A stretch of 64,000 nucleotides of DNA, from contig JAQTNV010000001.1 in the NCBI GenBank assembly GCA_028713675.1, positions 73,879 to 137,878 on the forward strand, given 5' to 3'. The DNA comes from a bacterium. Lineage in GTDB: Bacteria > Desulfobacterota > JAPLJL01. Shown in pieces: positions 6,554 through 64,000 of this stretch; within the stretch, counting starts at the first letter, position 1; each line of letters starts with the position of its first letter. A model generated the notes under the pieces. That model was not told where the DNA came from. It saw only the letters and a program-made list of their open reading frames with translations, and did no database searches. The translations under genes and the position numbers were made by a program.

Positions 6554-6593
6554 AAATAAAAAGTCATTTTTCCAAGAATCGGCCCTTTTAAAA

Positions 6594-42086: not shown

Positions 42087-42116
42087 GAAACAAAAAGGAT
42101 AAATTTTAAAAGATTG

Positions 42117-42151: not shown

Positions 42152-42204
42152 AAGATAGAAAACCAACAATCTGAATAATTAAAACTTTAAATATTATTTG
42201 ATTA

Positions 42205-42765
42205 TTATTCCTCTTTTACTTTCACATTCAGACTGCCCAAGGTTTCCGCCTCATCCCCCTTCCCGCGAACGACTTTTATCTCCCAATCGCCGGCGGATCT
42301 GGGGGTAAACATTTTCCAGGTCCGATACCTGATTGAACCCGAAACGCTTAATTCCTTCGCACTCTTGGTCTCTCCCCCCTGGTTAAATTGGACCACAATG
42401 TCATTGATTTCATCGTTTTCGGGAGTCAAGTATGACATCCAGAAATAATAAGATTTTTCTTTTACGAGATTGGAGGGAGACACCTCATCAACGCATTCAT
42501 TCTTGTTGTCCCCTTCCGGTTCAATGTCTTTACAAACCTTGATCTCGACCAGGACGGTTCCCTTGCCTCTTCCCTGGTAATAGAAATCAAGAAAACGCTT
42601 CGCCTCATCGGGAGTAGGCTTGCCCGTTGCCGGCGGCGCGACTTTTTCCCGGGCCGGGGATGCGGCCTTTTCCTCGGCGGGGGGAGCAACTTTTTCCTGG
42701 GCCAGCGCCGCGAAGGGCAGGAGAAAAACACATGCCGTCAGCGCCAAACACCGCTTCATTTTCAT
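42205..42765 (-). CDS. secreted hypothetical protein with EKVAPPA repeats
   Basis: Signal peptide. Start set at the ATG with an AAAGGGGAA RBS. Confidence 0.55.
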   Translation of the reverse strand: MKMKRCLALTACVFLLPFAALAQEKVAPPAEEKAASPAREKVAPPATGKPTPDEAKRFLDFYYQGRGKGTVLVEIKVCKDIEPEGDNKNECVDEVSPSNLVKEKSYYFWMSYLTPENDEINDIVVQFNQGGETKSAKELSVSGSIRYRTWKMFTPRSAGDWEIKVVRGKGDEAETLGSLNVKVKEE

Positions 42766-43021
42766 GACCGGTTCCCCTTTCATTTATATCGCCGGGAGCA
42801 ATTAAAGTTTTCCCTTTAATAAACAGAAGATCGGGAAGCGCCCATGCGCCCCGCAAGCATGAGTTCGATCCGCCATTATTATATTCGTTGATTCTATATG
42901 TTTTCCGCCAAATTAGGAACAATCGGGAGTGGGGCCGGGTTCCGTCAGTTCCGTTGCTTGGCCCCCCGCTGGAAAAACCGTATTGAACCGGCGATAACGC
43001 CGGCCAACTGAGGATTTCGGG

Positions 43022-44353: not shown

Positions 44354-44385
44354 AAAAATCTTCCTCTCCTCTCTATTTCCTTGAT

Positions 44386-45765: not shown

Positions 45766-45869
45766 TACTGTTTTTAACTAAAAGATCATATCAATTCACC
45801 GGAGTCAATAAAAAATTTTCCCCCGGCCCGGTTGAAAAAAACGGAAACGATGGTATTATTCCCGATTGG

Positions 45870-45907
45870 GGACAGGTAGCTCAGTTGGTAGAGCATCGGA
45901 CTGAAAA
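45870..45907 (+). pseudogene. truncated tRNA-Phe(GAA): 5' half only (acceptor 5' strand, D-arm, anticodon stem 5' strand and loop)
   Basis: GGACAGG-TA-GCTCAGTTGGTAGAGC-A-TCGGA-CTGAAAA closely matches the 5' half of bacterial tRNA-Phe. The complementary anticodon-stem strand, T-arm and 3' acceptor are absent downstream. Confidence 0.6.
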
Positions 45908-46350
45908 GGCAATCTGAGCAAAAATCTCATGTCCTTGATATCCCTCAAAAAGCTGGTTTAACCCATTGAAATCATTAATTAATTATTTAATATTATTCCT
46001 TATTATTTTTTATTCGATCTCATCATTTTTTACTATCTCTGCGTCTCCTTTGCGTCTCCCGGTCATGAAAATTTAATGGGAATTTAAATCGATGGAGACA
46101 CTCCCCTCCCCCAGACTTTTATTTAAATAAAGGAAGAACTGGCCCAGCAAGTGGCTCAAGCTCCACTCGACGAGAAATCGAGCAGGAAAATTAGGTATAG
46201 ATTTGGAAATTTAACTTGAAGATTTGTTAGGATGAGGACCGAGTTTTTCAATCCGACTATGCCTCGGGCTTTTACCACCATTCGGGGAGGCCGGGTTTTT
46301 CTTCAGCTGAACCTGGAGGACGAAAGGCGGAGCCGGTAGGCAGGGCGATT

Positions 46351-46686
46351 TCAGAGGATATCGCGGACGAATATTTTCAACTTATGAATCTTTTTCCTTT
46401 CTTTCCCCTTGGCGATTGAAATTACGAGGTCTAGAACCTCCCTACCCTCGGGCGATAGGTTTTCCTTGGAAAAGCATAAGCTGAAAAAATCAGCGGGGGA
46501 GAGTCCCAAGCCCGAAGCAATTTTAATTATGCTCCGGAGCTTCAGGTCCGATTGCGCCCGCTCGATTTCTCCGAGAAATTTCGGATGAATCCCGGCTCGA
46601 TCAGCCAACTCCTCCTGACTTAACCCTCTCGCCTTTCTCAACTCCCGAAGACTGCGTCCGAATTCAGCTGTCTCGCTCTTGCCCAT
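46351..46686 (-). CDS. XRE-family HTH transcriptional regulator
   Basis: LRKARGLSQEELADRAGI HTH_3 motif. Start at the ATG with an AAAGGAG RBS. Confidence 0.8.
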   Translation of the reverse strand: MGKSETAEFGRSLRELRKARGLSQEELADRAGIHPKFLGEIERAQSDLKLRSIIKIASGLGLSPADFFSLCFSKENLSPEGREVLDLVISIAKGKERKKIHKLKIFVRDIL

Positions 46687-46882
46687 AGCGTCTCCTTTTA
46701 AGTCCCAAATTACGCCAGGTCGGGCGAGGATAACCACAATCCAGAGACTACATATCTACTTGAATTAGTAGTCTTACGGTGGTATATAAGACGTATAACA
46801 ACGTCAGAGATTCCCCTGAAGATTTTCCGCAAATGCGGAAAGGGTGAACTTTCCGTGGAGATGAGGCACAGGAGGAGAAAAC

Positions 46883-48094
46883 ATGAAAAGCAAAGCGAAA
46901 TGGTATTTAGGGTTGGCTCTTGGTTTTCTGGCCGGGGTGGTGTTCGTGATCTCCTGCGGGGAGGAGGCGCGGTCCATTGCCCAGGCGGTGATCAAGGCGG
47001 TGGACGTGTCCTTTGACAATTCGGGAACGGACATTGCGGCGACCGACATTCAAGGGCTGGGGACGGAGCTTACGGACCGGATCGCCTCCCTTGAGGGTAT
47101 GGTGACGGAACTGAATAGCTCGGTTCGTGAGTGTTTAGAAAAAGAACCAGCCAGCTATCAGATGCCGGAAAATGAGTGTTTGGAAAAGCAAACAGATATT
47201 TCTAAGGCCCCAGCGAATTGGATAGTCCTCGACAAGCAGACTCGCATCAACGGAAAAGTGATGCTGAATCTACCGTGCACATTATTCCTAAGGTATTTAA
47301 AGATAAATATCACTTATGCCAACGATATGGGCCGGGCTCACATCTATGAGATTCAAGTTTTCGGCCCCGACAATCCATATACAAATCTCGCCTATCGTTT
47401 GGTGGGCACGACGGTAACTGCTATTTCCGGCTCAGCAGCGTATTCAGCAATAGACGGTAATTTTTCGGGGGGATGGATCAGCGATCGAGACAATCCCGGA
47501 TGGGTCAGCGAGGAAGATCCCCATTGGATCATTGTGGACCTTGGACGGAATTACCGAATCGACCGGATCGTAATTGACGCTGGGAATTACTACCAGGACT
47601 ACTTTCTTTTAGGTATGGCCGGGATTCAGATGTCGGAGAATGAGTGTTTGGAGGAGGAGACCCCGGCTGATTGGGTAACCCTCGACGAACAGACACAAGT
47701 AAATGAGACCGTAGCACTAAATCTGACTTGCGCGATGCACCTGCGGTATTTGAAGATCAGCGCAACATATTCAGACGATGCGGGCCAAGTCAATGTTCAT
47801 GAGATTCAAGTGTTTGGCCCGGACACACCGAACACCAATCTCGCCCTGAACAAGACGGTGACTGCCATTTCCTCCCAGGGGGGGAATTCTGGGAACCAAG
47901 GTCCAGGAAGTGCGGTGGATTGGGATTTTTCGAGCAGATGGGCCAGCGAGAGGAATGATCCCGGACCTGCCAGTGTGGAGGTTCCACATTGGATTATGGT
48001 TGATCTCGGACAGAACTTTAGAATTGACAGAATCGTTATCGACCTTGCGGATCACCGCCTGGACTACACCCTGTTGGGAAAGCGGGGTGAGTGA
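46883..48094 (+). CDS. lipoprotein with two discoidin (F5/8 type C)-like domains
   Basis: VISCG lipobox. An internal tandem duplication (IYEIQVFGPDNPYTNLA... / VHEIQVFGPDTPNTNLA...) ends in a discoidin-like beta-sandwich signature (HWI(I/M)VDLG..RIDRIVID). Confidence 0.65.
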   Translation: MKSKAKWYLGLALGFLAGVVFVISCGEEARSIAQAVIKAVDVSFDNSGTDIAATDIQGLGTELTDRIASLEGMVTELNSSVRECLEKEPASYQMPENECLEKQTDISKAPANWIVLDKQTRINGKVMLNLPCTLFLRYLKINITYANDMGRAHIYEIQVFGPDNPYTNLAYRLVGTTVTAISGSAAYSAIDGNFSGGWISDRDNPGWVSEEDPHWIIVDLGRNYRIDRIVIDAGNYYQDYFLLGMAGIQMSENECLEEETPADWVTLDEQTQVNETVALNLTCAMHLRYLKISATYSDDAGQVNVHEIQVFGPDTPNTNLALNKTVTAISSQGGNSGNQGPGSAVDWDFSSRWASERNDPGPASVEVPHWIMVDLGQNFRIDRIVIDLADHRLDYTLLGKRGE

Positions 48095-48188
48095 AACCAT
48101 TTTCCACGAATGTGGAGCGGTAATAGGCCGTCGGTAATTATTAGAAGGGTAGGATCAAAAAGCGATCGGTTAATTTTGGGGGTTACCT

Positions 48189-49196
48189 ATGGATAAAGAT
48201 TATAGACGACTTTTAGAAGATATCGGTATTGCAAAGACCGTTAAGGATGTAAGTGATTTAAAAAAGCAATCGGAAGGATTAGAACGAGGCATAGAAGAGC
48301 TTAACTATAATCAGAGAATTTTAATAGATGAAAATAGGCGGGAGCGAGAGAAAGCAGAAGAACTGGAAATAGAAGAACTTCGTGCAAAAAAAGGTAGTAA
48401 GTTTTTCCATCTTGGAGAAGATTGTTTTGAAAAGAAGAAATGGTCGGAGGCCCTAAACCATTATGAAGTTGCCGCGAGATCCTATCCGCGAGATTGGATT
48501 TTTACCGAGACGAAGGTATTTAGTCAGAAAATGGCACTTTTTCGGATGGCGCAGTGTCTTCTGAATGCAAATAAAATCGATGAGAGCATTCAGATATTAG
48601 AGTCGTTATATGAAAACATCCAAGATTTTGCGGCGGATAAGGATTATTTAAATCTCCAAATTCCAGAAATAAAATCAGAAATGATGATGGCATTTGAAAG
48701 AAAATTAGGTAAGTTATCAAAACAACCTTCTGAAGATTCAGCAATTTTAAATGAAATAAATTTCCTGAAGTATCTTTTATTCCAAATTGATCCGGAAAAA
48801 CATCGCAGCTATGAACCAATTTATTCCAATGTAAAACAAGAAATGGAGAAGGAAAAAGAAGAAAAGAAAAAAGGAGAAGAACAAAGACAGCTTAAAGAAC
48901 AAATCAAAAACCTAAGTGAAAAAAAAGAAGAATTGTTGGCTTACTCAAAATCTGAGTCAGTCGGAGGAATATTGCTCGGTTCTTTTTTTGGGATGGCTGC
49001 CGGGGCTTTCGTAACCTATAGTATGAGAGAAAAGTGGGGAGCATTTTTAAATATCGCTTCTTTTTTTACCATAGTAACCTTGGGAATATTTTTGGGGTGG
49101 CTCGGAGGAAAAAGCAGTCGAGAATACAAGAGAGAAAATTCTAAGATTGATGAGCAAATAAAAGAAATCCAAACCAAACTTTTAAAATATTCATAA
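48189..49196 (+). CDS. coiled-coil protein with C-terminal double TM anchor
   Basis: Long heptad-rich segments and a TPR-like stretch. C-terminal hydrophobic helices GILLGSFFGMAAGAFVTY and FFTIVTLGIFLGWLGG. Confidence 0.65.
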   Translation: MDKDYRRLLEDIGIAKTVKDVSDLKKQSEGLERGIEELNYNQRILIDENRREREKAEELEIEELRAKKGSKFFHLGEDCFEKKKWSEALNHYEVAARSYPRDWIFTETKVFSQKMALFRMAQCLLNANKIDESIQILESLYENIQDFAADKDYLNLQIPEIKSEMMMAFERKLGKLSKQPSEDSAILNEINFLKYLLFQIDPEKHRSYEPIYSNVKQEMEKEKEEKKKGEEQRQLKEQIKNLSEKKEELLAYSKSESVGGILLGSFFGMAAGAFVTYSMREKWGAFLNIASFFTIVTLGIFLGWLGGKSSREYKRENSKIDEQIKEIQTKLLKYS

Positions 49197-50603
49197 ATGG
49201 ATTTCCGCTCCTTACCTCTTTTCAAAGAATACATAAAATTTATCCTTGACCTTCATTCTCTTTTCGAGAAGAGGAGGAAATCAAGAAGTTCAGACGGTCC
49301 TTCGGTCAGTGCCGAGATCGAGGAAAAGATTCAGGCCAAGAAAGCCGAGATCGACAAACTGAATTCAGAAGCCGAACAGTCCGGCTTATTTTTTCCCCTG
49401 GAAAGGCTTTGCAAGGAATACAATCTCAACGATTTGGAGCGGGATATAATCCTTCTCCTTTTCGCACGTAGTTTTTTGGAAGGTGTTACTTATTCCAGCA
49501 CCTCTGGGAAGCAGATTCTCTATTTTCTGATCCCCGATCCGATTGATGTGATGCTTCAGCGTCAGGTGATTATGCCCGAGGGAAAGTTGATGAAGGAAGG
49601 GCTGGTCCATGTATATCGGTTCGCACGTGAAGGTGATCCGTTCCTCGACGGTGGATTTTGCTTGGGTGAACCGGTCTTGTCGTATTTACTCGGAGAGACC
49701 GAAGACCGTGGAGACTGGAAGAATAAAAGAGGGGAAGGGGAACAGGTAGGGTTTTTCCATCGCCATCGAAGACGGGATAGCGGTCCGCTTCTTGAGATTC
49801 GAGAGCCGGGGATAACCTTCACCCAGGTTATCCTCCCGGAAGGCCATCGGGATCGAATTTCCGAGGCGCTAAATCAGCTTGTCCATCAGAACCTTATTTT
49901 TATCGACTGGGGGTTTAAGGAAACTCTCCCGTATGGGAAAGGGGTGACCATACTTTTCTCCGGTCCTCCTGGAACCGGCAAAACAATGACCGCAGCGGCC
50001 TGTGCCGATTTCCTGAGCTTGAAGCTCGGAGTCGTAAGACCTGAGGGAGTGGTGGACCTCTTTGTCGGCGAAACGGAAAAGAATGTCTCGCGGGTATTCC
50101 AGGAAGCCAAAAAGGAAAATTGCCTTTTGTTCTTTGATGAGTGCGATTCCCTTTTTCAGTCCCGATATTCCGGCAGGACGGCAGTTGACCGGATGGAAAG
50201 CCGGTCGGTCAACATCCTCCTGCGGGAGATCGAGCGGAGCTTTGAGGGGGCGGTTATCCTGGCCACAAACCGGGTTTTTGACCTGGACGAAGCCCTGGAA
50301 CGACGAATCTCCCTTAGACTCCAGTTCCCGGTGCCCGATGCAGGGGCCAGAGAGCGGATTTGGCGGGGTTTCTTTCCTGCCCAAGCCCCATTGGACTCCC
50401 AAGTGGATTTTTGGGCTTTAGCGCATGAATATGAGCTTTCTGGGGGGGAAATAAAGAATGCTGTCCTCCGGGCAATCCGGAGGATCGGTTCCCAGTCAGA
50501 GCCAAGGTGCCAGCTAATAACCCAGAATCTTCTTGAGGAAGTTGCCAGGGAGGAACTGGAGTCCCGCTGGAGCCGGGAAGATCGCAAGAGGATTGGGTTT
50601 TAG
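49197..50603 (+). CDS. AAA+ ATPase (classic AAA clade) with unique ~230-aa N-terminal domain
   Basis: Start codon abuts the upstream stop. Walker A GPPGTGKT, Walker B LLFFDECD, sensor-1 ATNR. Confidence 0.85.
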   Translation: MDFRSLPLFKEYIKFILDLHSLFEKRRKSRSSDGPSVSAEIEEKIQAKKAEIDKLNSEAEQSGLFFPLERLCKEYNLNDLERDIILLLFARSFLEGVTYSSTSGKQILYFLIPDPIDVMLQRQVIMPEGKLMKEGLVHVYRFAREGDPFLDGGFCLGEPVLSYLLGETEDRGDWKNKRGEGEQVGFFHRHRRRDSGPLLEIREPGITFTQVILPEGHRDRISEALNQLVHQNLIFIDWGFKETLPYGKGVTILFSGPPGTGKTMTAAACADFLSLKLGVVRPEGVVDLFVGETEKNVSRVFQEAKKENCLLFFDECDSLFQSRYSGRTAVDRMESRSVNILLREIERSFEGAVILATNRVFDLDEALERRISLRLQFPVPDAGARERIWRGFFPAQAPLDSQVDFWALAHEYELSGGEIKNAVLRAIRRIGSQSEPRCQLITQNLLEEVAREELESRWSREDRKRIGF

Positions 50604-50784
50604 CTCCCTGCCGGGTAACCACTGCCCACCTTTTCCACATTCGTGGAAAATAGTCTTTGTATGTTTTACTTGACCATCGGTAGGTATTTTCAGATAATAA
50701 CTCAAGGTCTGAAATTAAAGAGTCTCGAATTAGAAATAATTATAAATTTGATTTAAATTCCATAACGGAAAGGAAGGAGTTCGT

Positions 50785-51900
50785 ATGCGACTGGCAACAT
50801 TTAACGTAGAGAACATGTTCGAGAGAGCCAAAGCTCTGAATCTAGGCTCGTGGACAGAAGGCAAAACCGTTCTTGAGGATTTCAACAGGCTCAACACGTT
50901 GATTCAGGAATCTGTGTATACGGAAGAAATCAAGGCCGAGCTTCTAGATATAATGAAACGTCATAAGGGTTTGATAAAGGACGGCAATAGCGAGTTTCTA
51001 CGTCTTCGCGACGTTCGCGGAAAGTTTCTTTATCGCCCGAAGAACGGGCCAGTTGAAATCGGTGCTGGGGGCAGAAACGACTGGATTGGTTGGTTCGATC
51101 TGGAACGTGAGCCGGTCAAGGAGACAGCCACTGAAAATACTGCCCGGATCATTGGGATGTTGAACGCTGATATATTATGCGTTGTCGAGGCGGAAGATCG
51201 AATCGGTTTAAAGCGCTTCAATGATGCTGTAATCCAAAAAGTTGGTGCAAATTCATTTGGCTCCGTAATGCTGATTGATGGAAACGACGACCGAGGCATC
51301 GATGTCGGAATCATGGTTCGTAGTGAATTCGAGATAGCTCTTATGAAAAGCCACGTTGACGATAAGGACACCAAAGGAACTATTTTTAGCCGTGATTGCG
51401 CTGAATATGAAGTGAAGACCGCACAAGGAAATAAGCTCCTTCTTCTTATCAATCATTTCAAATCAAAAGGTTACGGGCGTTCTGATGAATCGGCTGCGAA
51501 GCGGCTACGGCAGGCAACTAGAGTCCGCCAAATTTATGATGAGCGTATTGCCGAAGGATATAAATACATTGCAATTGCCGGTGATCTAAACGAGATGCCT
51601 GATGAATCACCTATGGACCCGCTCTTGCGCAAAGGTTCCGATTTGACAGACATCATGACGCACCCAAAGTTTATTGGAGATGGACGACCTGGAACGCATG
51701 GCAATGGGACCAAGTCAGCAAAACTCGATTATATTCTTATGTCTCCAAAACTCTCCGAAAAGGTGACGAATGGAGGTTTAGAACGAAGGGGTGTCTGGGG
51801 TGGCAAAAATGGTACGCTCTTTCCGCATATCCCAACCATAGAGATGGAGATGGATGCAGCGTCCGATCATGCAGCGCTGTGGGCTGAAATCGATGTTTAA
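50785..51900 (+). CDS. endonuclease/exonuclease/phosphatase (EEP) family protein
   Basis: MRLATFNVEN start, ADILCVVEAED, C-terminal SDHAALWAEIDV. Confidence 0.82.
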   Translation: MRLATFNVENMFERAKALNLGSWTEGKTVLEDFNRLNTLIQESVYTEEIKAELLDIMKRHKGLIKDGNSEFLRLRDVRGKFLYRPKNGPVEIGAGGRNDWIGWFDLEREPVKETATENTARIIGMLNADILCVVEAEDRIGLKRFNDAVIQKVGANSFGSVMLIDGNDDRGIDVGIMVRSEFEIALMKSHVDDKDTKGTIFSRDCAEYEVKTAQGNKLLLLINHFKSKGYGRSDESAAKRLRQATRVRQIYDERIAEGYKYIAIAGDLNEMPDESPMDPLLRKGSDLTDIMTHPKFIGDGRPGTHGNGTKSAKLDYILMSPKLSEKVTNGGLERRGVWGGKNGTLFPHIPTIEMEMDAASDHAALWAEIDV

Positions 51901-52018
51901 AGCAATGTCATTATTGAACACTATGGAAAGGACTTTTCCCTGCCTGCTGGTCTTTACCTGTTCTCATCATGGCGGCGTTTGTGGGAGTCAAGATTAATTT
52001 TTTAAGGAGGAATATTTT

Positions 52019-52207
52019 ATGAATTTCAAATCAATTATTAAAGTTTTATTCGTTCTTATTTTTTTAACGATTTTCTTTTTTAACTGTGGTTTAGAAGAAG
52101 ATGATAATAAGGCTCCCTGTTGTGATGGAACTACAAGTCCAAGTTGTTATTGTGATGGAGACTTACAAGGGTGTTGTTCTCATCATGGTGGTGTTTGTGG
52201 ATGCTAA
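52019..52207 (+). CDS. small Cys-rich secreted (lipo)peptide, 62 aa
   Basis: AGGAGG RBS. Signal peptide ends in FFNCG. The mature part CCDGTTSPSCYCDGDLQGCCSHHGGVCGC has 9 Cys. A decayed copy of the C-terminus lies at 51924..51998. Confidence 0.5.
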   Translation: MNFKSIIKVLFVLIFLTIFFFNCGLEEDDNKAPCCDGTTSPSCYCDGDLQGCCSHHGGVCGC

Positions 52208-52232
52208 TCTACAAATATATTAAGGAAGAAAA

Positions 52233-52895
52233 ATGAGGAAGAAATCTTTAATCATTGGCCTTTGCGGTTTTTTCGCAGGAATAGCTTTTGTAATCCAGTG
52301 TGGGAACGATGCAAAATCTATAGCAGGCAAGATTGCCACTGCCCTGGATATTTCCTTTGATAATTCTGGGACTAACCTTGCATCCCAAAATGTTCAGGAC
52401 GCTATCTCAGAGATATCCTCGAATATTGATAAATTAAGTGTAAAAAAATCGCTTTATATTAAAGATGGAGATGGAAATTTACTTGGTATTTTTATTCAAA
52501 GACTTTATGGCGGTAGTTATGAATATTTTTCTATTGAAAATAATTCTTTAATGGAAATTAATAGTTTTGATGGCTCTTTATGTTCAGATTTAAGGTCTAT
52601 TCCAGCAATATATTTTATGGAAAATGATTGTGTAGGAAATGCATATTCAAATATAAGTGACATGTGGTCTGGAAAAGATAAAATATTTTGTGGTCCTAAT
52701 AATTCTTTTTACAAAATAAGTAGTGTTTTACTCAAAAACACAAAAGTCATAAGTATGAAAACGGTTGACTCCATTACCAAACAAATTACTTGTAGTAATA
52801 ACCCTTACAATTTCAATATAGATATAGCAAAACTTGAACAAATAACCTTGCCAAAGATACAATATACTCTTCCCATAACGATTGAAGCTAGATAG
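52233..52895 (+). CDS. lipoprotein, N-terminal module paralogous to 46883 product
   Basis: VIQCG lipobox. N-terminal ~60 aa are similar to the discoidin lipoprotein N-terminus (SIAxxIxxAxDxSFDNSGT). Confidence 0.6.
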   Translation: MRKKSLIIGLCGFFAGIAFVIQCGNDAKSIAGKIATALDISFDNSGTNLASQNVQDAISEISSNIDKLSVKKSLYIKDGDGNLLGIFIQRLYGGSYEYFSIENNSLMEINSFDGSLCSDLRSIPAIYFMENDCVGNAYSNISDMWSGKDKIFCGPNNSFYKISSVLLKNTKVISMKTVDSITKQITCSNNPYNFNIDIAKLEQITLPKIQYTLPITIEAR

Positions 52896-52898
52896 ATA

Positions 52899-53624
52899 TT
52901 GAATCCGAAACGGTATATCTTTTTCTTTTTATTCCTACTCTTACTATTATCTCCTTCAGTCTTCTCCTTTCCCCTCTCCCCAGTCTTCCGTGTCGTTGAC
53001 GGTGATACTATTGTCGTAAATTACCAAGGCCAGAAAGAAAAAGTCCGCCTAATCGGTGTAGATACCCCCGAAACCGTCGATCCTCGGCGTCCAGTCCAAT
53101 ATTTCGGGAAAGAGGCATCGAACTTCACTAAAAGGATGCTCACCGGCAAGCAGGTTCGTCTGGAATTCGACCAGAATAAACGGGATAAATACGGTCGGCT
53201 TCTGGCCTATATTCATCTCTCCTTGGCCCAGGCGAAGGATGCACCTGACTGCATGGTAAAATCTGGTCCTGCTGAGTTCGATTTCGATGCTTCCCTGATT
53301 TCCTGCGGTTATGGCCACGCTTATACCCGTTTTCCCTTCGCCAGGATGGATAAATACCGGGACTTGGAACGGCAGGCCCGGTTTTCTAATAGGGGACTAT
53401 GGGCCGGAGGGAATAGCTATGAGAAATTATTCGACAAAGCTGGGGAAAAGGGGATATCTGCCAAGCAGGAAGGGTATTTCGTCGCCAGTAGGAATTCAGA
53501 TAAGTTCCATAGACCCGACTGCAAATGGGCGATGAAGATCAGCGATAGGAACCTGATAAAGTTCAAGACAAGAGAAGAGGCGATAAAGGCAGGGCTTAAG
53601 CCGTGTGGGGTCTGTAGGCCATGA
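52899..53624 (+). CDS. secreted thermonuclease (SNase-like) with C-terminal Ada-type zinc-binding domain
   Basis: VVDGDTI...VRLIGVDTPE SNase motifs. C-terminal FHRPDC...FKTREEAIKAGLKPCGVCRP resembles the Ada metal-binding domain. Confidence 0.8.
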   Translation: MNPKRYIFFFLFLLLLLSPSVFSFPLSPVFRVVDGDTIVVNYQGQKEKVRLIGVDTPETVDPRRPVQYFGKEASNFTKRMLTGKQVRLEFDQNKRDKYGRLLAYIHLSLAQAKDAPDCMVKSGPAEFDFDASLISCGYGHAYTRFPFARMDKYRDLERQARFSNRGLWAGGNSYEKLFDKAGEKGISAKQEGYFVASRNSDKFHRPDCKWAMKISDRNLIKFKTREEAIKAGLKPCGVCRP

Positions 53625-54505
53625 AAAAAATTAGAAATAAAATAAAATTAAACATGCCTAAAGATCTGGAAATTCTCATTTCCGAAAAATCTACATTGAA
53701 TAGACAATTTTTTCGACTCGCTGATGAAGCTGGTGATCCTCAGCAATTAGTATCTGAACTATTTGATATTCTGCCAAATAAAATAAAAGAAGCACCAGCT
53801 TTTTTATTAATAACTGGGAAATGGCATTATGATTATGGTATTCCGTATATAAATCTACCCGAAAATACGAATGTGATTGGGACCCCACAATGGCCAGAGG
53901 TAAAAATCCTTTATCAATCCTTAAAAATAGCTCATACGTATTTAACGCATCAGCAATTTGATGTGTTTGTTCAAAGGTTGATAGATCCGGCAAAACACAA
54001 TGATGTATTGTTTGAAATGAGGCCACTGTTATATATCACAAAATCTTTTTGCCCAATATACGAAGTTTCCGGGTATGGTTCGGGTAATAAAACTATTGAT
54101 TGGTTAATAAAGCCAGCTTCTCCGCCATTCTTTTTAACTGAAGTAAAAAATCGTGAGAAAAGCATGATCAAATTTCTTCATGATGTCACTCCTAAACTTA
54201 ATCGTGGAGAAGATTTCATTATTCCCCCCAAACCTGATCCTGGTGATCTTTTCAAGAGCACATTAGAAAAATTCAAATCAAGAATAGACAGCTCATGGTT
54301 ACAAGGCGTATGGGTCCAAACACAAATTATTGAAGATAGATCATCCGTCATTCAATATTTTAACAAAATTGATCATACTATATTGCAGTTTTTAATTATT
54401 TCTAAATGGGGAAAAGATGCTTTTGTTTTAACACGGACAGAGCAACAGAAACGTCAATTGATAGATTTTTTTGAAATTAATGAGTCAACTTTATTGGATT
54501 ACTGA
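53621..54505 (+). CDS. hypothetical protein (294 aa), translationally coupled to the nuclease gene
   Basis: ATGA overlap with the upstream stop. AT-rich. No family recognised. Confidence 0.55.
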   Translation: MKKIRNKIKLNMPKDLEILISEKSTLNRQFFRLADEAGDPQQLVSELFDILPNKIKEAPAFLLITGKWHYDYGIPYINLPENTNVIGTPQWPEVKILYQSLKIAHTYLTHQQFDVFVQRLIDPAKHNDVLFEMRPLLYITKSFCPIYEVSGYGSGNKTIDWLIKPASPPFFLTEVKNREKSMIKFLHDVTPKLNRGEDFIIPPKPDPGDLFKSTLEKFKSRIDSSWLQGVWVQTQIIEDRSSVIQYFNKIDHTILQFLIISKWGKDAFVLTRTEQQKRQLIDFFEINESTLLDY

Positions 54506-54539
54506 AATTGAAGAATCCCATAATTCCAAAACTAATTAA

Positions 54540-56885: not shown

Positions 56886-57111
56886 TGGTCTTTTTTATTG
56901 ACTTGATCCACCCAGCATAGAACATACTCCAGTTATGGTCGGGATCGTCCTTCGAGGCGGACATCCTGACCGACTGGGACCTCTCGTTGTAATCGGTAAG
57001 GTAGCCCAGGGCGTCGAGGTCGCCGTGCTTTAGGATATAGACCCGCTGGCCTCGGTATTCCCGAAGTTTCGCTTTTATTACATCTGGGACCTTGTCGGGT
57101 ATCTGGATCAT
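56869..57111 (-). CDS. hypothetical small protein (80 aa)
   Basis: Overlaps both flanking minus-strand genes (4 nt upstream, 17 nt downstream). Confidence 0.4.
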   Translation of the reverse strand: MIQIPDKVPDVIKAKLREYRGQRVYILKHGDLDALGYLTDYNERSQSVRMSASKDDPDHNWSMFYAGWIKSIKKTSENAG

Positions 57112-57326
57112 TTTGCTTTTTTTCTTTTTACCTCATTCAGCAATTCATTCGCCCTTTTATCCAGTTCCTTGGCATCGATCAGGCCCTTTTCCATCATCTG
57201 CTCAAGAGCCGCTTTAAACGGGATCAGGGCAAGGACCACTTGATTATGGTTCTTGGTTAATTCCTCAACGGATTCTTCGAGTTTTTTAATACGGGTTAGA
57301 GTGTCTTTGAAATCTTTTTCAGTCAT
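57108..57326 (-). CDS. hypothetical small coiled-coil protein (72 aa)
   Basis: ORF with a 4-nt overlap to the 80-aa ORF. Confidence 0.4.
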   Translation of the reverse strand: MTEKDFKDTLTRIKKLEESVEELTKNHNQVVLALIPFKAALEQMMEKGLIDAKELDKRANELLNEVKRKKAK

Positions 57327-57421
57327 CTAATCTTTCTAAGCAGAGTCCTGCCATGTGAGCATAGGTAGCTACCTGACCGATGGTTTCAATAAGTTAAACA
57401 AACCTTCTATTTAATTACTTT

Positions 57422-58153
57422 TTACCTTGAAGGGGGGATGGTAAACATACGTCTGGCTTCAATGTTTTCCTTAAATACTTTATTAATGTGTTTCTCTAAT
57501 TCTTCTTCATATTTTTTTGCTCGTTCTTCTTCGACTTGCGGTGAAGGCTTTTCTGGTTTTGAAGGATTACCGACATCGTCATTATAAACATAGTAGACTT
57601 CAATTCTCTTATTTTTTTTGTCAATTATTTCAGTGGGCGTAAAAGTGTATTCTTTTCTAATTTCTTCAAAATTTATTATTGAATCATGAAAGCTCTTGGA
57701 GACCAGAAGATGATTTTCATCCCCTGTATCCATTATCCTTTGTGTGTTGTTGATAGCGTTTCCTGCAATATTTTCTTTGCCATTAATATCAGAATAAATA
57801 CATCCAGGTCCATTATGTAAGCCCACACGAATTCTAATGCATGATCTCTTTACAATTATCAATAAAAGCACGGCAAAATTGAAAGCTGTATGTTCATTAT
57901 TAAAACACAAGACTACACCATCGCCAGTAGGAAATTCTGTAACAATATCCTTATGTTTTCTCTTAATATAAGATAGGGTAGAAGTTAATCTTGTTATAAC
58001 ATACCATGCCTTTTCATTAGGAAGAAAACTATAACTGACAATATCAATAAAAAGATAGGAATAGGAGGCCTTTTTATATCTTCCTTCCTTGTATACGTCG
58101 ATTAATTGGGATTCCTTTTCTTTTTCTTCTTCTATTTCCGCTAAATATTTCAT
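57422..58153 (-). CDS. standalone class III nucleotidyl cyclase domain protein
   Basis: LFIDIVSYS (metal Asp 1), PTGDGVVLCF (Asp 2), IRVGLHNGPG, GNAINNTQRIMDTGD. These match adenylate/guanylate (or pyrimidine) cyclase catalytic motifs. 243 aa with no sensor domain. Confidence 0.7.
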   Translation of the reverse strand: MKYLAEIEEEKEKESQLIDVYKEGRYKKASYSYLFIDIVSYSFLPNEKAWYVITRLTSTLSYIKRKHKDIVTEFPTGDGVVLCFNNEHTAFNFAVLLLIIVKRSCIRIRVGLHNGPGCIYSDINGKENIAGNAINNTQRIMDTGDENHLLVSKSFHDSIINFEEIRKEYTFTPTEIIDKKNKRIEVYYVYNDDVGNPSKPEKPSPQVEEERAKKYEEELEKHINKVFKENIEARRMFTIPPSR

Positions 58154-58197
58154 GTTTTCTCCAAAATGTTGCTTAAAAGAACAGACCTTCGACTCTA

Positions 58198-58548
58198 TTA
58201 CTTCTCGGAAATAATTCTGGCTATCCTCAGAACCTTCTCTAATTGGTCGAGATCAAGGTTCTTCAGCACCTTTTCGATCTTGGCTATCTGGGTTTCCTTG
58301 GCTTCCTCTTCCTTCGACCCTGTCTTTGGAGGAATCAAATCTAATAGTTCGAGGAGATCAACTTTCAGGGCATCGGCTATTCTGTTCAGGACATCGATGC
58401 TCGGGTTCTTTTCCGCCCGCTCGATCTCGCCGACATATTTATAGGAAAGATCCGACAGGTCTCCCAGTTGCTGCTGGGTCAGGTTCCTCTCCCGTCGGGT
58501 GGATCTTAACTTTTCTCCGAGTCCTTTGATTAAAATCTGCTTGTCCAT
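58198..58548 (-). CDS. XRE-family HTH regulator
   Basis: RRERNLTQQQLGDLSDLS...IERAEKNPS HTH_3. Confidence 0.8.
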   Translation of the reverse strand: MDKQILIKGLGEKLRSTRRERNLTQQQLGDLSDLSYKYVGEIERAEKNPSIDVLNRIADALKVDLLELLDLIPPKTGSKEEEAKETQIAKIEKVLKNLDLDQLEKVLRIARIISEK

Positions 58549-58626
58549 TTGATTTTTATATAACCAATTATATGATAGGAAAAACCTAGGTCAAGAAAAA
58601 TAAGCTGTGCATAGGATTTAAGAAAT

Positions 58627-58977
58627 ATGAACAAGGACATATATCTCAAATTCGGACGACGGCTCAAATCATTGCGGAAAGAAACTGGTTTGAGTCAGAG
58701 AGAACTTGCCCAGCGAGCTAACCTATCCACTAACTATCTTGCTTTACTGGAAACAGGCAATCGTTCTCCGTCATTCAAGACCATTACGGTATTGGCTAAA
58801 GTTCTGCAAGTGCCGATCAGCGTGCTAATGGATTTAGAAGTTCAGGAAAAAGTGGAAAAGAAAAAAGGTAGGAAAACCTTGGATTATCGAGAGCGAATGA
58901 TGCGCTTTCTTTTTGCCAAGAGCGACGCCAAGGTAAAACTTGCCTATGAGGTTCTCCGCAAAATTTTACAAGAGTAA
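58627..58977 (+). CDS. XRE-family HTH regulator (divergent from 58198..58548)
   Basis: RKETGLSQRELAQRANLSTNYLALLETGNRSPS HTH_3. Confidence 0.8.
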   Translation: MNKDIYLKFGRRLKSLRKETGLSQRELAQRANLSTNYLALLETGNRSPSFKTITVLAKVLQVPISVLMDLEVQEKVEKKKGRKTLDYRERMMRFLFAKSDAKVKLAYEVLRKILQE

Positions 58978-59201
58978 CCGAGGAATACCCGACCGGCTGG
59001 TCGGAAGTCACATTATGTGACTTTTACTCCACAAATGTGGAAAGTGATCTTCATCATATTTTATTGGGCCTCGAAATTGGAAAGGATCAGATAGAAAAGC
59101 CGGTCTATGCGCTTGGGTTATAGCCCAATCTCCTCTTTATTAGACAAGATTTATAGCTGGTGATATTCTGCATTCATACGGTGAAAAATAGGGAGCAAGA
59201 A

Positions 59202-60965
59202 ATGAACCTCATTTCCAGAAAATGGTGGCTGGTTATTGTTCCAATTTGCATATTTGGTTCAGGTTGGGCTTGTGGAGGAGGTAATGGAAATTCTTCAGAA
59301 TCATCGCTGACTGCCCCTTCAAATCTCCAGGCAATGGTGATTTCTTCAATCCAGATCAACCTTACCTGGACCGATAATTCCGATAACGAGGATGGGTTCA
59401 AGATTGAGCGGAGGACCGGCACGGGGGGCATTTATGACGTGGTCTCAACCCCTTCCGCCAACATAACAAGCTGGGATGACAGCGGCTTAATTCAAGGCAC
59501 CACTTATTACTATAGAATTCGCGCATATATCTCTGATAAGGATTCAGAATATTCCGACGAGGTTAGTGCAACTACTAGCAATACTTCTGCGATAATTCCC
59601 GTTATCCCAGCCGCCCCCTCTGGTCTGACCGCAACGGTGATTTCTTCAACTCAAATCAATCTTACCTGGAAGGATAATTCCACCAACGAGAATGGCTTTG
59701 TGATCGAGAGGAAAACAGGGCTATCGGGAACATATGCTCAGGCTGCGACGGTCGGAGTCAATGTTACCTCTTACTCAGATACGGGTCTTTCGGCAGGGAC
59801 CACTTATTACTATCGGGTTTATTCCTACAATTCGACCGGGAACTCAAGTTATTCTATCGAGGTGAGCGCGACTCCAATGTCTATCCGCGATTCCTGGATA
59901 CCCACCAGCACCGGGACAAATGTGCCTTCAGGAAGGCATAGCCATACTGCTGTTTGGACAGGGACCGAGATGATTGTCTGGGGTGGTAGTGAATTTAACT
60001 CTGGCTCCATCAACACTGGAGGTAGATATAATCCCTCCACCGATTCTTGGACAACCACCAGCACCGGAGTAAACGTGCCTTCAGGAAGGTCTATCCATAC
60101 CGCAGTCTGGACAGGGTCTGAAATGATCATCTGGGGTGGGAGTGGTAGTATTGCTTCTGGTTCTCTTTATCTTAATACCGGGGGTAAATATAATCCGTCC
60201 ACCGATGCCTGGACCGCCACCAGCACCGGGACAAATGTGCCTGAAGGAAGGTATTACCATGTTGCCGTTTGGACAGGGACTGAAATGGTCGTCTGGGGTG
60301 GTTATGGCGGTGCTTACTTTTTCACCACCGGGGGTAGGTATAATCCGTCCACCGATTCCTGGACTGCCACCAGCACCGGGACAAATGTGCCTTTAGTAAG
60401 GGATTTATATACTACCGTTTGGACAGGGACGGAAATGATCATCTGGGGCGGGACATCAGGTGACTCTACTGGTGGTAAGTATGATCCCTCCACTGATTCC
60501 TGGACAGACACCAGCACCGGCGCGAATGTGCCTGCAGGAAGGAATCGCCATACCGCAGTCTGGACAGGAACCGAAATGATCATCTGGGGTGGGTGGGGTA
60601 TTATTGGATTTAACACCTACGGGGCGCTCAACACCGGGGGTAGATATAATCCGTCAACCGATTCCTGGACCGCCACCAGCACCGGGAACTATGTGCCTAC
60701 AGGAAGAGTTTGGGATGATTATCCCCCTGCCGTTTGGACAGGGACTGAAATGATCATCTGGGGTGGTCATGACGGTTCTAAAATTTTCAACACCGGGGGT
60801 AAATATAATCCGTCCACCAATTCCTGGACAGACACCAGCACCGGGCCAAATGTGCCTTCAGCAAGATATTCATATTCTACAGTTTGGACAGGGACGGAAA
60901 TGATCATCTGGGGTGGTTATGGCGGTCCTGATATTTTTAACACCGGGGGGAAATATACACCTTGA
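59202..60965 (+). CDS. lipoprotein with two fibronectin-III domains and ~11 Kelch-like beta-propeller repeats
   Basis: Start at the ATG with a GGGAGCAAG RBS. Lipobox WACGG. FN3 pair (PSNLQAMVISSIQINLTWTDNSDNEDGFKIERR... x2), then an HTAVWTGTEMIIWGG repeat about every 45 aa. Confidence 0.78.
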   Translation: MNLISRKWWLVIVPICIFGSGWACGGGNGNSSESSLTAPSNLQAMVISSIQINLTWTDNSDNEDGFKIERRTGTGGIYDVVSTPSANITSWDDSGLIQGTTYYYRIRAYISDKDSEYSDEVSATTSNTSAIIPVIPAAPSGLTATVISSTQINLTWKDNSTNENGFVIERKTGLSGTYAQAATVGVNVTSYSDTGLSAGTTYYYRVYSYNSTGNSSYSIEVSATPMSIRDSWIPTSTGTNVPSGRHSHTAVWTGTEMIVWGGSEFNSGSINTGGRYNPSTDSWTTTSTGVNVPSGRSIHTAVWTGSEMIIWGGSGSIASGSLYLNTGGKYNPSTDAWTATSTGTNVPEGRYYHVAVWTGTEMVVWGGYGGAYFFTTGGRYNPSTDSWTATSTGTNVPLVRDLYTTVWTGTEMIIWGGTSGDSTGGKYDPSTDSWTDTSTGANVPAGRNRHTAVWTGTEMIIWGGWGIIGFNTYGALNTGGRYNPSTDSWTATSTGNYVPTGRVWDDYPPAVWTGTEMIIWGGHDGSKIFNTGGKYNPSTNSWTDTSTGPNVPSARYSYSTVWTGTEMIIWGGYGGPDIFNTGGKYTP

Positions 60966-61015
60966 CGGGTTTCTGCAAATACGTTGAATCAACCTCCGGG
61001 AAAATCAGAGCTAAT

Positions 61016-61570
61016 ATGGAAGAAATTAATAATATTGCGATTGAGATTAGAAAATATGTCAATGAATTTCATTTATATGATAAACATTTTTTAGATAGGA
61101 ATGATGATTGGAAATCTATTTGTGTTGGAATGGATTTATTAGAGGATTCTTGTTTAGCGCTTATATATTACGAAGAAAATGCCGTTGGAGGTAGTGATGG
61201 CGAAAAATACCTTAAATTATATGGATTCCTTCAAGCAGTTTTTTTACAGCAGGATTCAATAAAATTTATTTATGAAAATTTATTAGGACATAGTCTGAAG
61301 CCAGATCCTAATTCGGCCTGGGAAGAAATCAGAAATCTTAGGAATCTCACTACTGGTCATCCAATTAAACAAGGGTGGGACAATAAGATAAAAAGATGTT
61401 TTGTCCATAGAATAACGCTAAAAAAAGATAGCTTCAGCGTTACTGTATTTGATAATCAAAAATCCGCCCCGGAGAATAAAGATATTAATCTAAAAAATTT
61501 ATTTGATAGATATAAATCAGAAGCAATTACTTGTCTCAAGAAAATATTAGAGACCCGCCGCAACGCTTAA
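61016..61570 (+). CDS. hypothetical protein (~184 aa; track ORF 60962..61570)
   Basis: AT-rich ORF. Start uncertain. No family recognised. Confidence 0.45.
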   Translation: MEEINNIAIEIRKYVNEFHLYDKHFLDRNDDWKSICVGMDLLEDSCLALIYYEENAVGGSDGEKYLKLYGFLQAVFLQQDSIKFIYENLLGHSLKPDPNSAWEEIRNLRNLTTGHPIKQGWDNKIKRCFVHRITLKKDSFSVTVFDNQKSAPENKDINLKNLFDRYKSEAITCLKKILETRRNA

Positions 61571-61658
61571 TTTATAAGTAGGTTTGTTCCACAAACGTGG
61601 AAACAATCTGCCGCAATTCCCCAATCCATCTTTAGACTAACCTGCTGATAATTCATCC

Positions 61659-64000
61659 ATGAAACGAAATAAATCTCCCATCAAATTAGAGCTTGTCCGG
61701 CAATGGCATCCTACAAAGAATGGAAAACTAACGCCGAGAGATGTCACCGCTGGCTCACATAAAAAAGTATGGTGGTTATGTAAAAAAAACAATACACATG
61801 AATGGCAGGCAACGATCAAGGGCCGAAGTATTAGTCAAGGTTGTCCGTATTGTTCAGGTAGATTGGTAAGTAAAGATAACTGCCTTGCGACGGTTAATCC
61901 TGCTTTGGCCCGACAATGGCATCCAAAGAAAAATGGAAAACTAACGCCAAGAGATTTCACCGCCAAATCAACAGAAATTATTTGGTGGTTATGCCCAAAA
62001 AATAATGCACATGAATGGAAAGCAACTATTAACAGCCGAAATAGGGGAGACGGCTGTCCATATTGTTCAGGCAGACGGGTAAGTAAAGATAACTGCCTTG
62101 CAAAGGTTAATCCTGCTTTAGCCCGGCAATGGCATCCTACAAAGAATGGAAATCTGACGCCAAGCATGGTCACCGCTCACTCGAATGAAAAAGTTTGGTG
62201 GCAATGTCCAAAAAACAATACACACGAATGGAAAACAACTATTTCCGAGCGCAGTAGGGGATACGGTTGCCCATACTGTGTTGGTAGATTTGTGAGCAAA
62301 GATAACTGCCTTCAGACGGTTAATCCGGCTTTGGCCCGACAATGGCATCCAAAGAAAAATGGAAAACTAACGCCAAGAGATTTCACCGCCAAATCAGGTA
62401 AAACAGTCTGGTGGTTATGTCCCAAAAACAATACACATGAATGGAAAGCAACTATTAACAGTCGCAGTAGGGGCGACGGTTGTCCATATTGTTCAGGGAA
62501 ACGGGTATGTAAAGAAAACTGCCTTGCGACGGTTAATCCTGCTTTGGCCCGACAATGGCATCCAAAGAAAAATGGAAAACTAACGCCAAGAGATTTCACC
62601 GCCAACTCAAATAAAAAGTTTTGGTGGCAATGCCCAAAATCAAAAAACCACGTTTGGCGGACATCAATCCTTAGTCGAAACTGGGATCGTAGAGGCTGTC
62701 CGTATTGTGCAAATCAATATGTAGATAAAGAAAACTGCCTTGCGACGGTTAATCCTGCTCTGGCCCGGCAATGGCATCCTACAAAAAATGGAAAATTGAC
62801 GCCAAGAGATATCGTCGCTGGCTCTACCAAAAAAGCATGGTGGTTATGCTCAAGAGGACATGAATGGCAAGCAATGATCCTTAGTCGGAATAAGGGCGTT
62901 GGATGTCCCCAATGTCATTCAAATTCATCTCATTTAGAACTTTGTGTCCTAACTCAAATGCAATATCTCTTTGGTGATAATAATGTTAAGCATCGGAAAA
63001 AAATTATAAATGAAGAGTGCGATGTTTTTATTGAACGATTTAAAATTGCTATCGAAATAGATGGCGTTTATTGGCATAGGGAAAAAATTAGGAAGGAAAA
63101 GAAAAAGAATAAAATATTTCAAGAAACCGGAGTTATTTTAATAAGAATAAGAGAAGAAGGTCTTCCAAAATTATCGTCAACCGATATATTTTTCAAATCC
63201 ACAGATAGGCCCTTTGATATAACATGTAGGGTAATTAAAAAAATTCTCAAGACCGAAAAACTTCATACCAAAGCAGAAAAAAAACTTAAAAATTATTTAA
63301 AAAGAAAAGACATTGCTAATAAAGAAAGGTATTTATATCTTTTATCCATTTTACCTTCGCCAATACCTGGCACCAGCTTGCAGGACCTGAATAAAAAGAT
63401 AACCGCAGAATGGCACCCTACAAAAAATGGATCGCTTACCCCAAGGAATTTTTTGCCTTCTTCTCATCAAAAAATCTGGTGGCAATGTCCAAATAACCAT
63501 CACCATGAATGGGAAGCAACTATTGATAGTCGCAATAGGGGGGGGCATGGGTGCCCATATTGCTCAGGCAACCGTGTAAGTAAAGATAATTGTCTTGCGA
63601 CGGTTTTCCCAGCTTTAGCTCGGCAATGGCATCCTACGAAAAACGGAAAACTGACGCCCCAAGATTTCGTTGTTGGCTCACATAAAAAAGTATGGTGGTT
63701 ATGCCCAAAAAACAATGAACATGAATGGGAAACAACTATTGGCGGTCGCAGTAGGGAAACCGGTTGCCCATATTGTTCAGGGAAATGGGTAAGTAAAGAT
63801 AACTGCCTTGCGACGGTTAATCCTACTTTGGCTCGGGAATGGCATCTGACGAAGAATGGAAAGCTAACGCCAAGAGATTTCACTGCCAACTCAAATAAAA
63901 AGTTTTGGTGGCAATGCCCAAAATTTAAAAAACATGTATGGAAGGCATCAATCCTTAACCGAAATTGGAATGGTAGTGGCTGTCCATATTGTTCGGGCAA
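61659..64000 (+). CDS. large zinc-ribbon-repeat protein with embedded DUF559/Vsr-like PD-(D/E)xK endonuclease domain (3' partial, runs off window)
   Basis: Manual translation of the frame from the ATG at 61659 gives an uninterrupted ORF to position 64000. It contains nine or more ~45-aa repeats (WHPTKNGKLTP.D...S.K..WW.C....HEW.A.I..R.RG.GCPYC). Between repeats 6 and 7 lies ECDVFIERFKIAIEIDGVYWH, a DUF559-like nuclease core. Not in the ORF track because there is no stop in the window. Confidence 0.8.
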   Translation, partial: MKRNKSPIKLELVRQWHPTKNGKLTPRDVTAGSHKKVWWLCKKNNTHEWQATIKGRSISQGCPYCSGRLVSKDNCLATVNPALARQWHPKKNGKLTPRDFTAKSTEIIWWLCPKNNAHEWKATINSRNRGDGCPYCSGRRVSKDNCLAKVNPALARQWHPTKNGNLTPSMVTAHSNEKVWWQCPKNNTHEWKTTISERSRGYGCPYCVGRFVSKDNCLQTVNPALARQWHPKKNGKLTPRDFTAKSGKTVWWLCPKNNTHEWKATINSRSRGDGCPYCSGKRVCKENCLATVNPALARQWHPKKNGKLTPRDFTANSNKKFWWQCPKSKNHVWRTSILSRNWDRRGCPYCANQYVDKENCLATVNPALARQWHPTKNGKLTPRDIVAGSTKKAWWLCSRGHEWQAMILSRNKGVGCPQCHSNSSHLELCVLTQMQYLFGDNNVKHRKKIINEECDVFIERFKIAIEIDGVYWHREKIRKEKKKNKIFQETGVILIRIREEGLPKLSSTDIFFKSTDRPFDITCRVIKKILKTEKLHTKAEKKLKNYLKRKDIANKERYLYLLSILPSPIPGTSLQDLNKKITAEWHPTKNGSLTPRNFLPSSHQKIWWQCPNNHHHEWEATIDSRNRGGHGCPYCSGNRVSKDNCLATVFPALARQWHPTKNGKLTPQDFVVGSHKKVWWLCPKNNEHEWETTIGGRSRETGCPYCSGKWVSKDNCLATVNPTLAREWHLTKNGKLTPRDFTANSNKKFWWQCPKFKKHVWKASILNRNWNGSGCPYCSG

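Follow-up and report, generated by a model that had tools for sequence, protein, structure and literature searches.

We describe here a tRNA-Phe(GAA) gene that breaks off after its anticodon loop in a 64,000-nt stretch of DNA (hereafter the window) from a bacterium of the GTDB lineage Desulfobacterota; JAPLJL01 (GenBank assembly GCA_028713675.1, contig JAQTNV010000001.1, positions 73,879 to 137,878 of the forward strand). From the break to the right end of the window the DNA is AT-richer and carries accessory genes, and we consider it likely (probability about 0.8) that this region is an integrative genomic island that entered the anticodon loop of a chromosomal tRNA-Phe(GAA) gene and displaced the 5' fragment of that gene. 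An earlier reading of the window made from its letters alone (hereafter the sequence-only reading) had proposed an acquired island at this position, and our comparisons support it on two counts: the relatives represented by contigs L007 and L012 carry an uninterrupted tRNA-Phe gene, and in another relative (contig L008) the same broken fragment, a related arm, an insert and an intact tRNA-Phe gene follow one another.

The tRNA-Phe fragment and its promoter

The fragment (Table 1) reads GGACAGGTAGCTCAGTTGGTAGAGCATCGGACTGAAAA on the forward strand and ends with CTGAAAA, the last letter of which is base A38. These 38 nt span the 5' strand of the acceptor stem, the D arm, the 5' strand of the anticodon stem and the whole 7-nt anticodon loop, and directly after A38 the sequence ceases to be that of a tRNA (GGCAATCTGAGCAAAAATC...). 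The fragment is identical to bases 1-38 of tRNA-Phe(GAA) in five related contigs, which confirms that a gene of this identity is indeed broken off at the point named by the sequence-only reading. As is required of terminal tRNA fragments in the Islander database, it lies outside protein domains and no full tRNA is called over it.

ARAGORN predicted no tRNA in the whole 64-kb window, and at the gathering score Rfam found nothing at the site of the fragment, neither a tRNA nor an intron family; no group I or group II intron family exceeded its threshold in the vicinity. A permissive Rfam scan of 45-48 kb brought up no intron family and gave the tRNA model 25 bits (gathering score 29), in a forced alignment that lacks a T arm and assigns 12 nt to the "anticodon loop". 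No complete tRNA gene, with or without an intron, is thus predicted here, and such a gene would have spoken against the sequence-only reading. Neither a 3' half of tRNA-Phe nor a second 5' fragment is present anywhere in the window. Since tRNA-Phe(GAA) is indispensable for reading the genetic code, an intact gene must exist elsewhere in the genome.

The fragment is preceded by a sigma-70-type promoter that matches 10 of the 12 consensus positions and is predicted to be strong. The same promoter sequence stands before every intact tRNA-Phe gene of L007, L008, L009, L012 and L013, which identifies it as the native promoter of the interrupted gene. We suggest that the 38-nt element should be annotated as a displaced attachment-site remnant rather than as a pseudogene of obscure origin.

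Uninterrupted genes in related genomes

When 185,579 species-representative genomes were searched for the 38-mer, only two contigs were obtained, which derive from genomes of Lac Pavin sediment, and a scan of JGI metagenomes added five more. In L007, L009, L012 and L013 the shared promoter is followed by tRNA-Phe; ARAGORN calls an intact gene in the first three of these, and in L013 the gene is cut by the contig end 13 bases past the 38-mer. In the comparison with each of the five relatives that have an intact copy, the homology of the window stops precisely at position 45907.

Two of these contigs also preserve the chromosomal context. The product of the OmpA-family gene to the left of the fragment shows 87-91% amino acid identity (86-87% at the DNA level) to its orthologues in L012 and L007, and both orthologues are located upstream of an intact tRNA-Phe gene; L012 additionally holds an orthologue of the region at 38.46-38.91 kb of the window. 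L007 and L012 thus show the OmpA-like gene, the same promoter and an intact tRNA-Phe gene, with the AT-rich insert absent from this equivalent site, which is the empty site that the sequence-only reading had suggested looking for. Past the intact tRNA-Phe gene, L007 and L009 continue with genes for ADP-forming acetyl-CoA synthetase and with host-like content of guanine and cytosine (GC). As a separate observation, L007 encodes a 349-aa SNase-like protein (2980-4029), 3.2 kb downstream of its intact tRNA-Phe gene, which is 41% identical over 140 aa to the nuclease encoded at 52899-53624 in the window.

A fragment, an insert and an intact gene in L008

The order of elements in L008, read on the strand of the tRNA, is promoter, 38-nt fragment, arm, insert of 5.5 kb, second promoter and intact tRNA-Phe. 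The fragment (6493-6530) and the intact gene (882-957) are both encoded on the minus strand of this one contig, so that a co-oriented intact cognate tRNA is found downstream of the 5' fragment. The L008 fragment breaks off after the same base, A38, and is followed by AGCAATCCAGACAAAAA....

The sequence that follows the break in the window is collinear with that of L008 (consensus RGCAATC..CAAAAA..CTGGTT(T)AAC..TTGCGTC; arm motif RGCAATC..CAAAAA..CTGGTTAAC), and it probably represents an attachment-site arm. In global alignments over the first 70-170 nt, the two arms score 5-6 standard deviations above 1000 dinucleotide shuffles, none of which reached the observed score. A stringent local alignment of the arms was not significant, as 16 of 500 shuffles reached its score, and it picked out low-complexity AT runs. 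The arm in the window contains the direct repeat TGCGTCTCC at 46036-46059. It also contains a second promoter-like site (45966-46004; TTGAAA, 16 nt, TAATAT), which from its -10 region onward (TATTATTCCTTATT) echoes the tRNA promoter (TATTATTCCCGATT at 45854-45867); its spacing is not kept in L008, and it may be a chance occurrence in AT-rich DNA.

The L008 insert encodes a 296-aa protein, an HSDR_N-like protein, an IS3-type and an IS200-like transposase and a ParE/Phd pair. The 296-aa product of the first open reading frame (ORF) was considered as a hidden integrase and rejected, as it has no match in Pfam or NCBIfam and shows just weak matches to tail-fibre-like PHROGs families. L008 carries a direct repeat, the copies of which are 90% identical over the 99 nt of promoter and 5' half and 91% identical over a Phd antitoxin gene (257 nt). 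This Phd/YefM antitoxin gene precedes each of the two tRNA-Phe copies (1198-1456 and 6605-6863), in one case after a ParE toxin gene and in the other after a HicA toxin gene, which suggests either that toxin-antitoxin modules belong to the promoter-proximal end of this island family or that the islands are arranged in tandem.

A break in composition

The GC content is 0.561 at positions 1-45869 and 0.436 at 45908-64000 (1-kb bins, Mann-Whitney p = 1e-8), and a single change point is best placed at 45.5 kb (500-bp bins). The correlation of tetranucleotide usage with a reference from 1-41 kb is 0.92-0.96 in most of the left-hand blocks and drops to 0.82, 0.73, 0.72 and 0.54 to the right of the junction; the chromosome is represented in these comparisons only by the 45.9 kb that precede the break. 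All three measures set the region apart from the flanking chromosome. The left part is itself uneven, with GC values from 0.48 to 0.635 and just 0.514 in the 4.7 kb next to the junction (41101-45869), and within 45908-64000 the GC content is a mosaic of 0.376-0.49. The shift to AT-richer DNA described by the sequence-only reading therefore stands, while its figure of about 60% GC for the left part has to be lowered to an average of 56%.

The same reading had also held that repeat arrays typical of the genome end at the junction. The last of them lie at 37.8-37.9 kb, about 8 kb earlier, and because the arrays already stop there, the island's lack of them says less than was claimed. The arrays deserve mention in their own right: nearly all intergenic gaps of the left part hold short tandem arrays with periods of 7, 8, 9 or 14 nt, which are dense at 41-18801 and occur again at 37813-37885, with a unit that changes from gap to gap (e.g. 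TAACCTA, GCAGAGG, CTAACCAC or GTCTATCTG). Comparable arrays (GGTTTCT, AAATCCC) are found just 3' of the tRNA-Phe genes of L007, L008, L009 and L012, and they appear to be a lineage-wide genome signature. The host-like part of the window also contains a 372-nt tandem duplication (92% identity) at 23275-24024, inside an ORF of 1793 codons (20759-26140).

Proposed course of integration

The arrangement is the one to be expected if a circular element, with a promoter and a tRNA 5' half in its attachment site, recombines with the chromosomal gene in the anticodon loop. At the left junction (45907/45908) the host promoter and bases 1-38 would thereby become joined to the arm of the element, and at the right junction the promoter and 5' half of the element would be fused to the host 3' half and so restore tRNA-Phe, by analogy to L008. 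A crossover in the anticodon loop fits the data, because the block of identity ends at the 3' edge of that loop. Since the stranded piece is a 5' fragment with its native promoter, the far end of the island should hold a complete tRNA-Phe gene, with promoter and 5' half supplied by the island, rather than a lone 3' half. After excision the empty site would read from the promoter on the FadL side into ...CTGAAAATCCGAGG, and the circular form from the promoter at the island end into ...CTGAAAAGGCAATC. We infer that the insertion was made by a tyrosine integrase that crosses over in the anticodon loop, that the integrase gene and the restored tRNA-Phe lie to the right of 64 kb, and that the island is a single element and not a mosaic that has since decayed.

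The stranded promoter points toward the 3' end of the first XRE gene in the window, and into the first ORF in L008. It is tempting to speculate, as a long shot, that this strong, constitutive promoter fires into the conserved arm of about 170 nt and yields a chimeric RNA with a tRNA half at its front, that this RNA could report or control the state of integration, and that the island family may move without a conventional tyrosine integrase, because none is seen in the window or in L008. Such an RNA, if real, could exist only while the island is integrated.

Weighing the evidence and the alternatives

Several observations count against an island of this type. The domain scan of 20 ORFs in the visible 18 kb revealed no integrase, resolvase or transposase, in agreement with the sequence-only reading, which had noticed no integrase in the window. 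The complete 5.5-kb insert of L008 likewise encodes no tyrosine or serine recombinase, its only recombination enzymes being the two transposases, and according to tblastn the island of the window and the L008 insert share no similarity at the protein level. The duplication in L008 reaches about 540 nt upstream through the Phd gene, which is longer than the usual block of identity at an attachment site and suggests either that islands of one family stand in tandem or that the arrangement has decayed. The right end of the island lies beyond 64 kb and was not reached, and no orthologues of the acetyl-CoA synthetase alpha and beta genes, which flank the tRNA on the right in the relatives, were found on the source contig. 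Two further points of this kind concern the assembly: no independent assembly that spans 45907/45908 was found, so that the source contig alone joins the two sides, and the second copy of the 38-mer in the sample (see below) could come from a co-occurring related species.

A serious alternative is an old, immobilised relic. According to this explanation, the insertion took place in a common ancestor with the L008 lineage, the integrase was lost, and the cargo was turned over by other routes, such as insertion sequences and illegitimate recombination, so that the 18 kb would not be a discrete mobile element but variable DNA beside an attachment site that is dead. The loose conservation of the arm between the window and L008, which is about the level of neutral divergence for these lineages, would fit such a history, as would the entirely different cargo of the two genomes, the lack of a visible integrase in both inserts, the mosaic GC content inside the 18 kb and the great variability among relatives of the DNA to the left of the tRNA. 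A fragment that has been dead for long should, however, have decayed, and the 38 nt show no mismatch to functional copies in either genome, whereas the promoter and Phd repeats of L008 have diverged by 9-10%. Moreover, L007 and L012, which are close to the window by OmpA identity, have uninterrupted genes. We therefore regard the relic as possible, on balance doubtful.

The joining of two molecules by the assembler also has to be considered. Proteins of the island were found, identical, in the Logan assemblies of SRR22315508 and SRR22315509 and in GCA_028711105.1. In the k=31 Logan assembly of SRR22315509 the left contig (L005) includes exactly the first 30 nt of the tRNA fragment and stops there, and the island contig (L004) starts exactly 30 nt before the last base of the fragment. 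Because both contigs break there, the de Bruijn graph implies that the 38-mer, and nothing beyond it, is repeated in the sample, with two different contexts on either side; a second copy therefore exists in the community, presumably in an intact tRNA-Phe gene. A chimera would have joined, via these shared 38 nt, a chromosome with the FadL genes, the promoter and an intact tRNA to another genome or a free element with a promoter, a 5' half and the arm. Points in favour of such an error are the source, which is a metagenome-assembled genome, the two contexts on each side, the single assembly across the junction and the sharp difference in composition. On the other hand, the same architecture of the junction is present inside one contig of the independent genome L008, and even a chimera would still need a truncated tRNA-Phe fused to AT-rich DNA on some molecule. 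Illumina reads, and the large k-mers with which standard metagenome assemblers work, also exceed 38 nt by far, so that a repeat of this length is normally resolved. These arguments make a chimera improbable. The Logan contigs of SRR22315509 break at one more place, within the island (58450-58471, where L004 ends and L003 starts, in the XRE gene at 58198-58548), a hint that the sample contains the island in strain-level variants.

Finally, a functional tRNA or tRNA-like RNA at 45870-45935, with an intron or with a 12-nt anticodon loop, no T arm and a closed acceptor stem, is suggested by the end-to-end Rfam alignment (TCGGA pairs with TCTGA, and GGACAGG with CATGTCC with one mismatch) and by anticodon-stem-like pairing after a 5-nt RGCAA insert, four of the five pairs of which are kept in L008, but it is very improbable and largely refuted by the sub-threshold score without T arm, the rejection by ARAGORN, the lack of an intron family, the unconserved 3' strand of the acceptor stem (GAATTATTT in L008, CATGTCC in the window) and the normal tRNA-Phe gene that L008 retains 5.5 kb away.

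The left flank of the tRNA locus

The OmpA-family gene is the conserved left anchor of the locus, and the gap between it and the tRNA-Phe promoter is hypervariable. It measures 3.7 kb in the window (42148-45811), 65 nt in L007 (7393-7458) and 1.5 kb in L012 (244-1783), where the sequence is unlike that of the window and contains an ORF for a 486-aa Cys-rich (iron-sulfur-like) protein. This variability implies that both sides of the tRNA-Phe gene are recombination hot spots. In the window the gap is filled mainly by a pair of genes for FadL-type transporters, which is 79% identical at the DNA level to a pair in contig L006, located there in a different genomic context. We considered whether this block (42.2-45.7 kb) is an older island in tandem with the one described here and rejected the idea, as no additional tRNA fragment is found upstream of it and the block is shared with L006.

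Gene content of the probable island

At least 18.1 kb of the island are visible, within the range of 2-200 kb used for islands in Islander. The sequence-only reading had listed as typical island cargo XRE regulators, nucleases, an AAA ATPase, a nucleotide cyclase, lectin-like lipoproteins and a giant zinc-ribbon/DUF559 protein. Pfam corroborates most of this list, with three XRE regulators, an EEP and an SNase nuclease, an AAA ATPase, an F5/8-type-C protein, an Fn3/Kelch protein and a DUF4379 zinc-finger protein; the cyclase and the DUF559 segment are the weak entries. The supposed cyclase, a protein of 243 aa, matches Guanylate_cyc with an E-value of 8.6e-4, which does not reach the curated cutoff. 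In the DUF4379 protein, at least nine repeats (nine stretches with a DNA period of 213 nt and 76-83% identity) are interrupted at 62.9-63.35 kb by a segment similar to Vsr/DUF559/MTES_1575 nucleases, with E-values of 0.002-0.008, below the Pfam thresholds.

Table 1. Positions of the tRNA-Phe fragment, its surroundings and the genes of the predicted island in the window (strand given where defined).
Feature	Position	Strand	Details
OmpA-family gene, conserved left anchor of the tRNA-Phe locus	41268-42086	+	Pfam OmpA, E = 3e-26
Variable block	42205-45738	-	192-aa ORF and two FadL/TodX-type outer-membrane transporter genes; Pfam Toluene_X in both large ORFs
Native tRNA-Phe promoter, sigma-70-type, intact	45832-45859	+	TTGAAA, 16 nt, TATTAT; TG precedes the second hexamer
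Displaced tRNA-Phe(GAA) 5' fragment	45870-45907	+	bases 1-38, the last being the final base of the anticodon loop; intergenic
Probable left arm of the island	45908-46077	+	collinear with the L008 sequence after the same break
Visible part of the likely inserted island	45908-64000		at least 18.1 kb, runs past the window end; GC 0.436
XRE-family helix-turn-helix regulator, first island gene	46351-46686	-	111 aa; Pfam HTH_3, E = 1e-14
Three-gene run: F5/8-type-C (discoidin) protein, TPR protein, AAA+ ATPase with winged helix	46883-50603	+	Pfam
IetA-like AAA+ ATPase, N-terminal winged helix	49197-50603	+	PADLOC IetA, E = 2.9e-34
EEP-family nuclease/phosphatase, 62-aa ORF, 220-aa protein, SNase-like nuclease, 294-aa protein	50785-54505	+	Pfam
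PEGA-repeat/FGE-sulfatase (SUMF1-like) protein, two small ORFs, 243-aa protein	54540-58153	-	FGE-sulfatase, E = 5e-62
Divergent XRE pair	58198-58548, 58627-58977	-, +	HTH_3/HTH_31, E about 1e-13
Fn3 and Kelch beta-propeller protein, then 202-aa protein	59160-61570	+	Pfam Kelch, E = 1e-61; fn3
DUF4379 treble-clef zinc-finger repeat protein	61659-64000	+	Pfam DUF4379, E = 2e-186; runs off the window

The first island gene, which encodes the 111-aa XRE product, is also called in the Logan contigs L004 and L024. The SNase-like nuclease carries an Ada-type zinc domain and matches the PADLOC profile "SNc+LTD" (E = 5e-32), and the 220-aa and 294-aa proteins encoded on either side of it have no match in Pfam, NCBIfam, PHROGs or PADLOC. 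The Fn3/Kelch gene contains internal repeats of 150 nt, and its product is probably secreted or a lipoprotein. With an IetA-like ATPase, two nucleases, three XRE regulators and surface repeat proteins, the region is a reasonable place to seek functions in defence or surface variation.

Searches for a phage origin gave no similarity to structural, packaging or lysis proteins or to viruses that would mark the region as a prophage. Among eight island proteins scanned, only the XRE regulator had matches in PHROGs; two island proteins tested against IMG/VR had no relatives there, and megablast detected no match of the island DNA in collections of plasmids and phages. In IMG/VR, where the element might have turned up in free or viral form, the anticodon-arm sequence was found only in intact phage tRNA-Phe genes, and three matches to the junction pattern were dismissed as chance, being located inside one coding sequence.

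Comparison with known systems

Part of the cargo resembles the anti-phage system Ietas (IetA-IetS), in that the AAA+ ATPase of the island matches the IetA profiles of PADLOC (Table 1). It differs from Ietas in that no neighbouring protein matches the protease partner IetS in Pfam or PADLOC, the neighbour being a TPR protein, and in that the ATPase scores 112 bits against the NCBIfam model IteA, far under the cutoff of 510; the island genes thus fall outside Ietas as defined by these profiles. The TPR protein (48189-49196) has weak similarity to DUF2207_C, and the stop codon of its gene directly abuts the start codon of the ATPase gene. The two could form a variant two-gene system.

As a whole, the closest counterpart of the island is the 5'-fragment class of Islander (Hudson, Lau and Williams 2015, PMC4383910), which holds 159 islands with a 5' fragment, as opposed to 3760 with a 3' fragment, among 3919 in total. 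The database requires a 5' fragment to be located upstream of the intact gene and classes crossovers as anticodon-centred or T-stem, and its authors state that no recombinases other than tyrosine integrases are known to target tRNA genes (PMC4383910). In common with the members of this class, the tRNA is split at the anticodon loop and a gene fragment marks the island end, the fragment lies upstream of the place where the restored gene is expected in the same orientation (an order seen directly in L008), the composition is anomalous and the cargo accessory, and relatives have an uninterrupted site. The present case differs in that the visible 18 kb hold no integrase gene, the restored tRNA and the right end lie outside the window, the L008 repeat extends about 540 nt upstream and includes the Phd gene, and the host is an uncultured lineage known from metagenomes only.

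The classical tRNA islands and prophages of the 3'-fragment type (e.g. those with P4-like or lambdoid integrases at tRNA 3' ends) share with it the tRNA target and the replacement by the element of the part that is displaced. Here, unlike in those, the promoter-proximal half is displaced, so that the element must supply a promoter and a 5' half, and the strong native promoter of the tRNA is left pointing into the island. Our analysis does not challenge current understanding and describes what would be a fairly ordinary genomic island. It nevertheless provides an example of the rarer class that replaces the promoter-proximal half of a tRNA, it indicates that the 18 kb are best annotated as accessory DNA, and it defines to the base the left boundary of an acquired region in a lineage of this kind.

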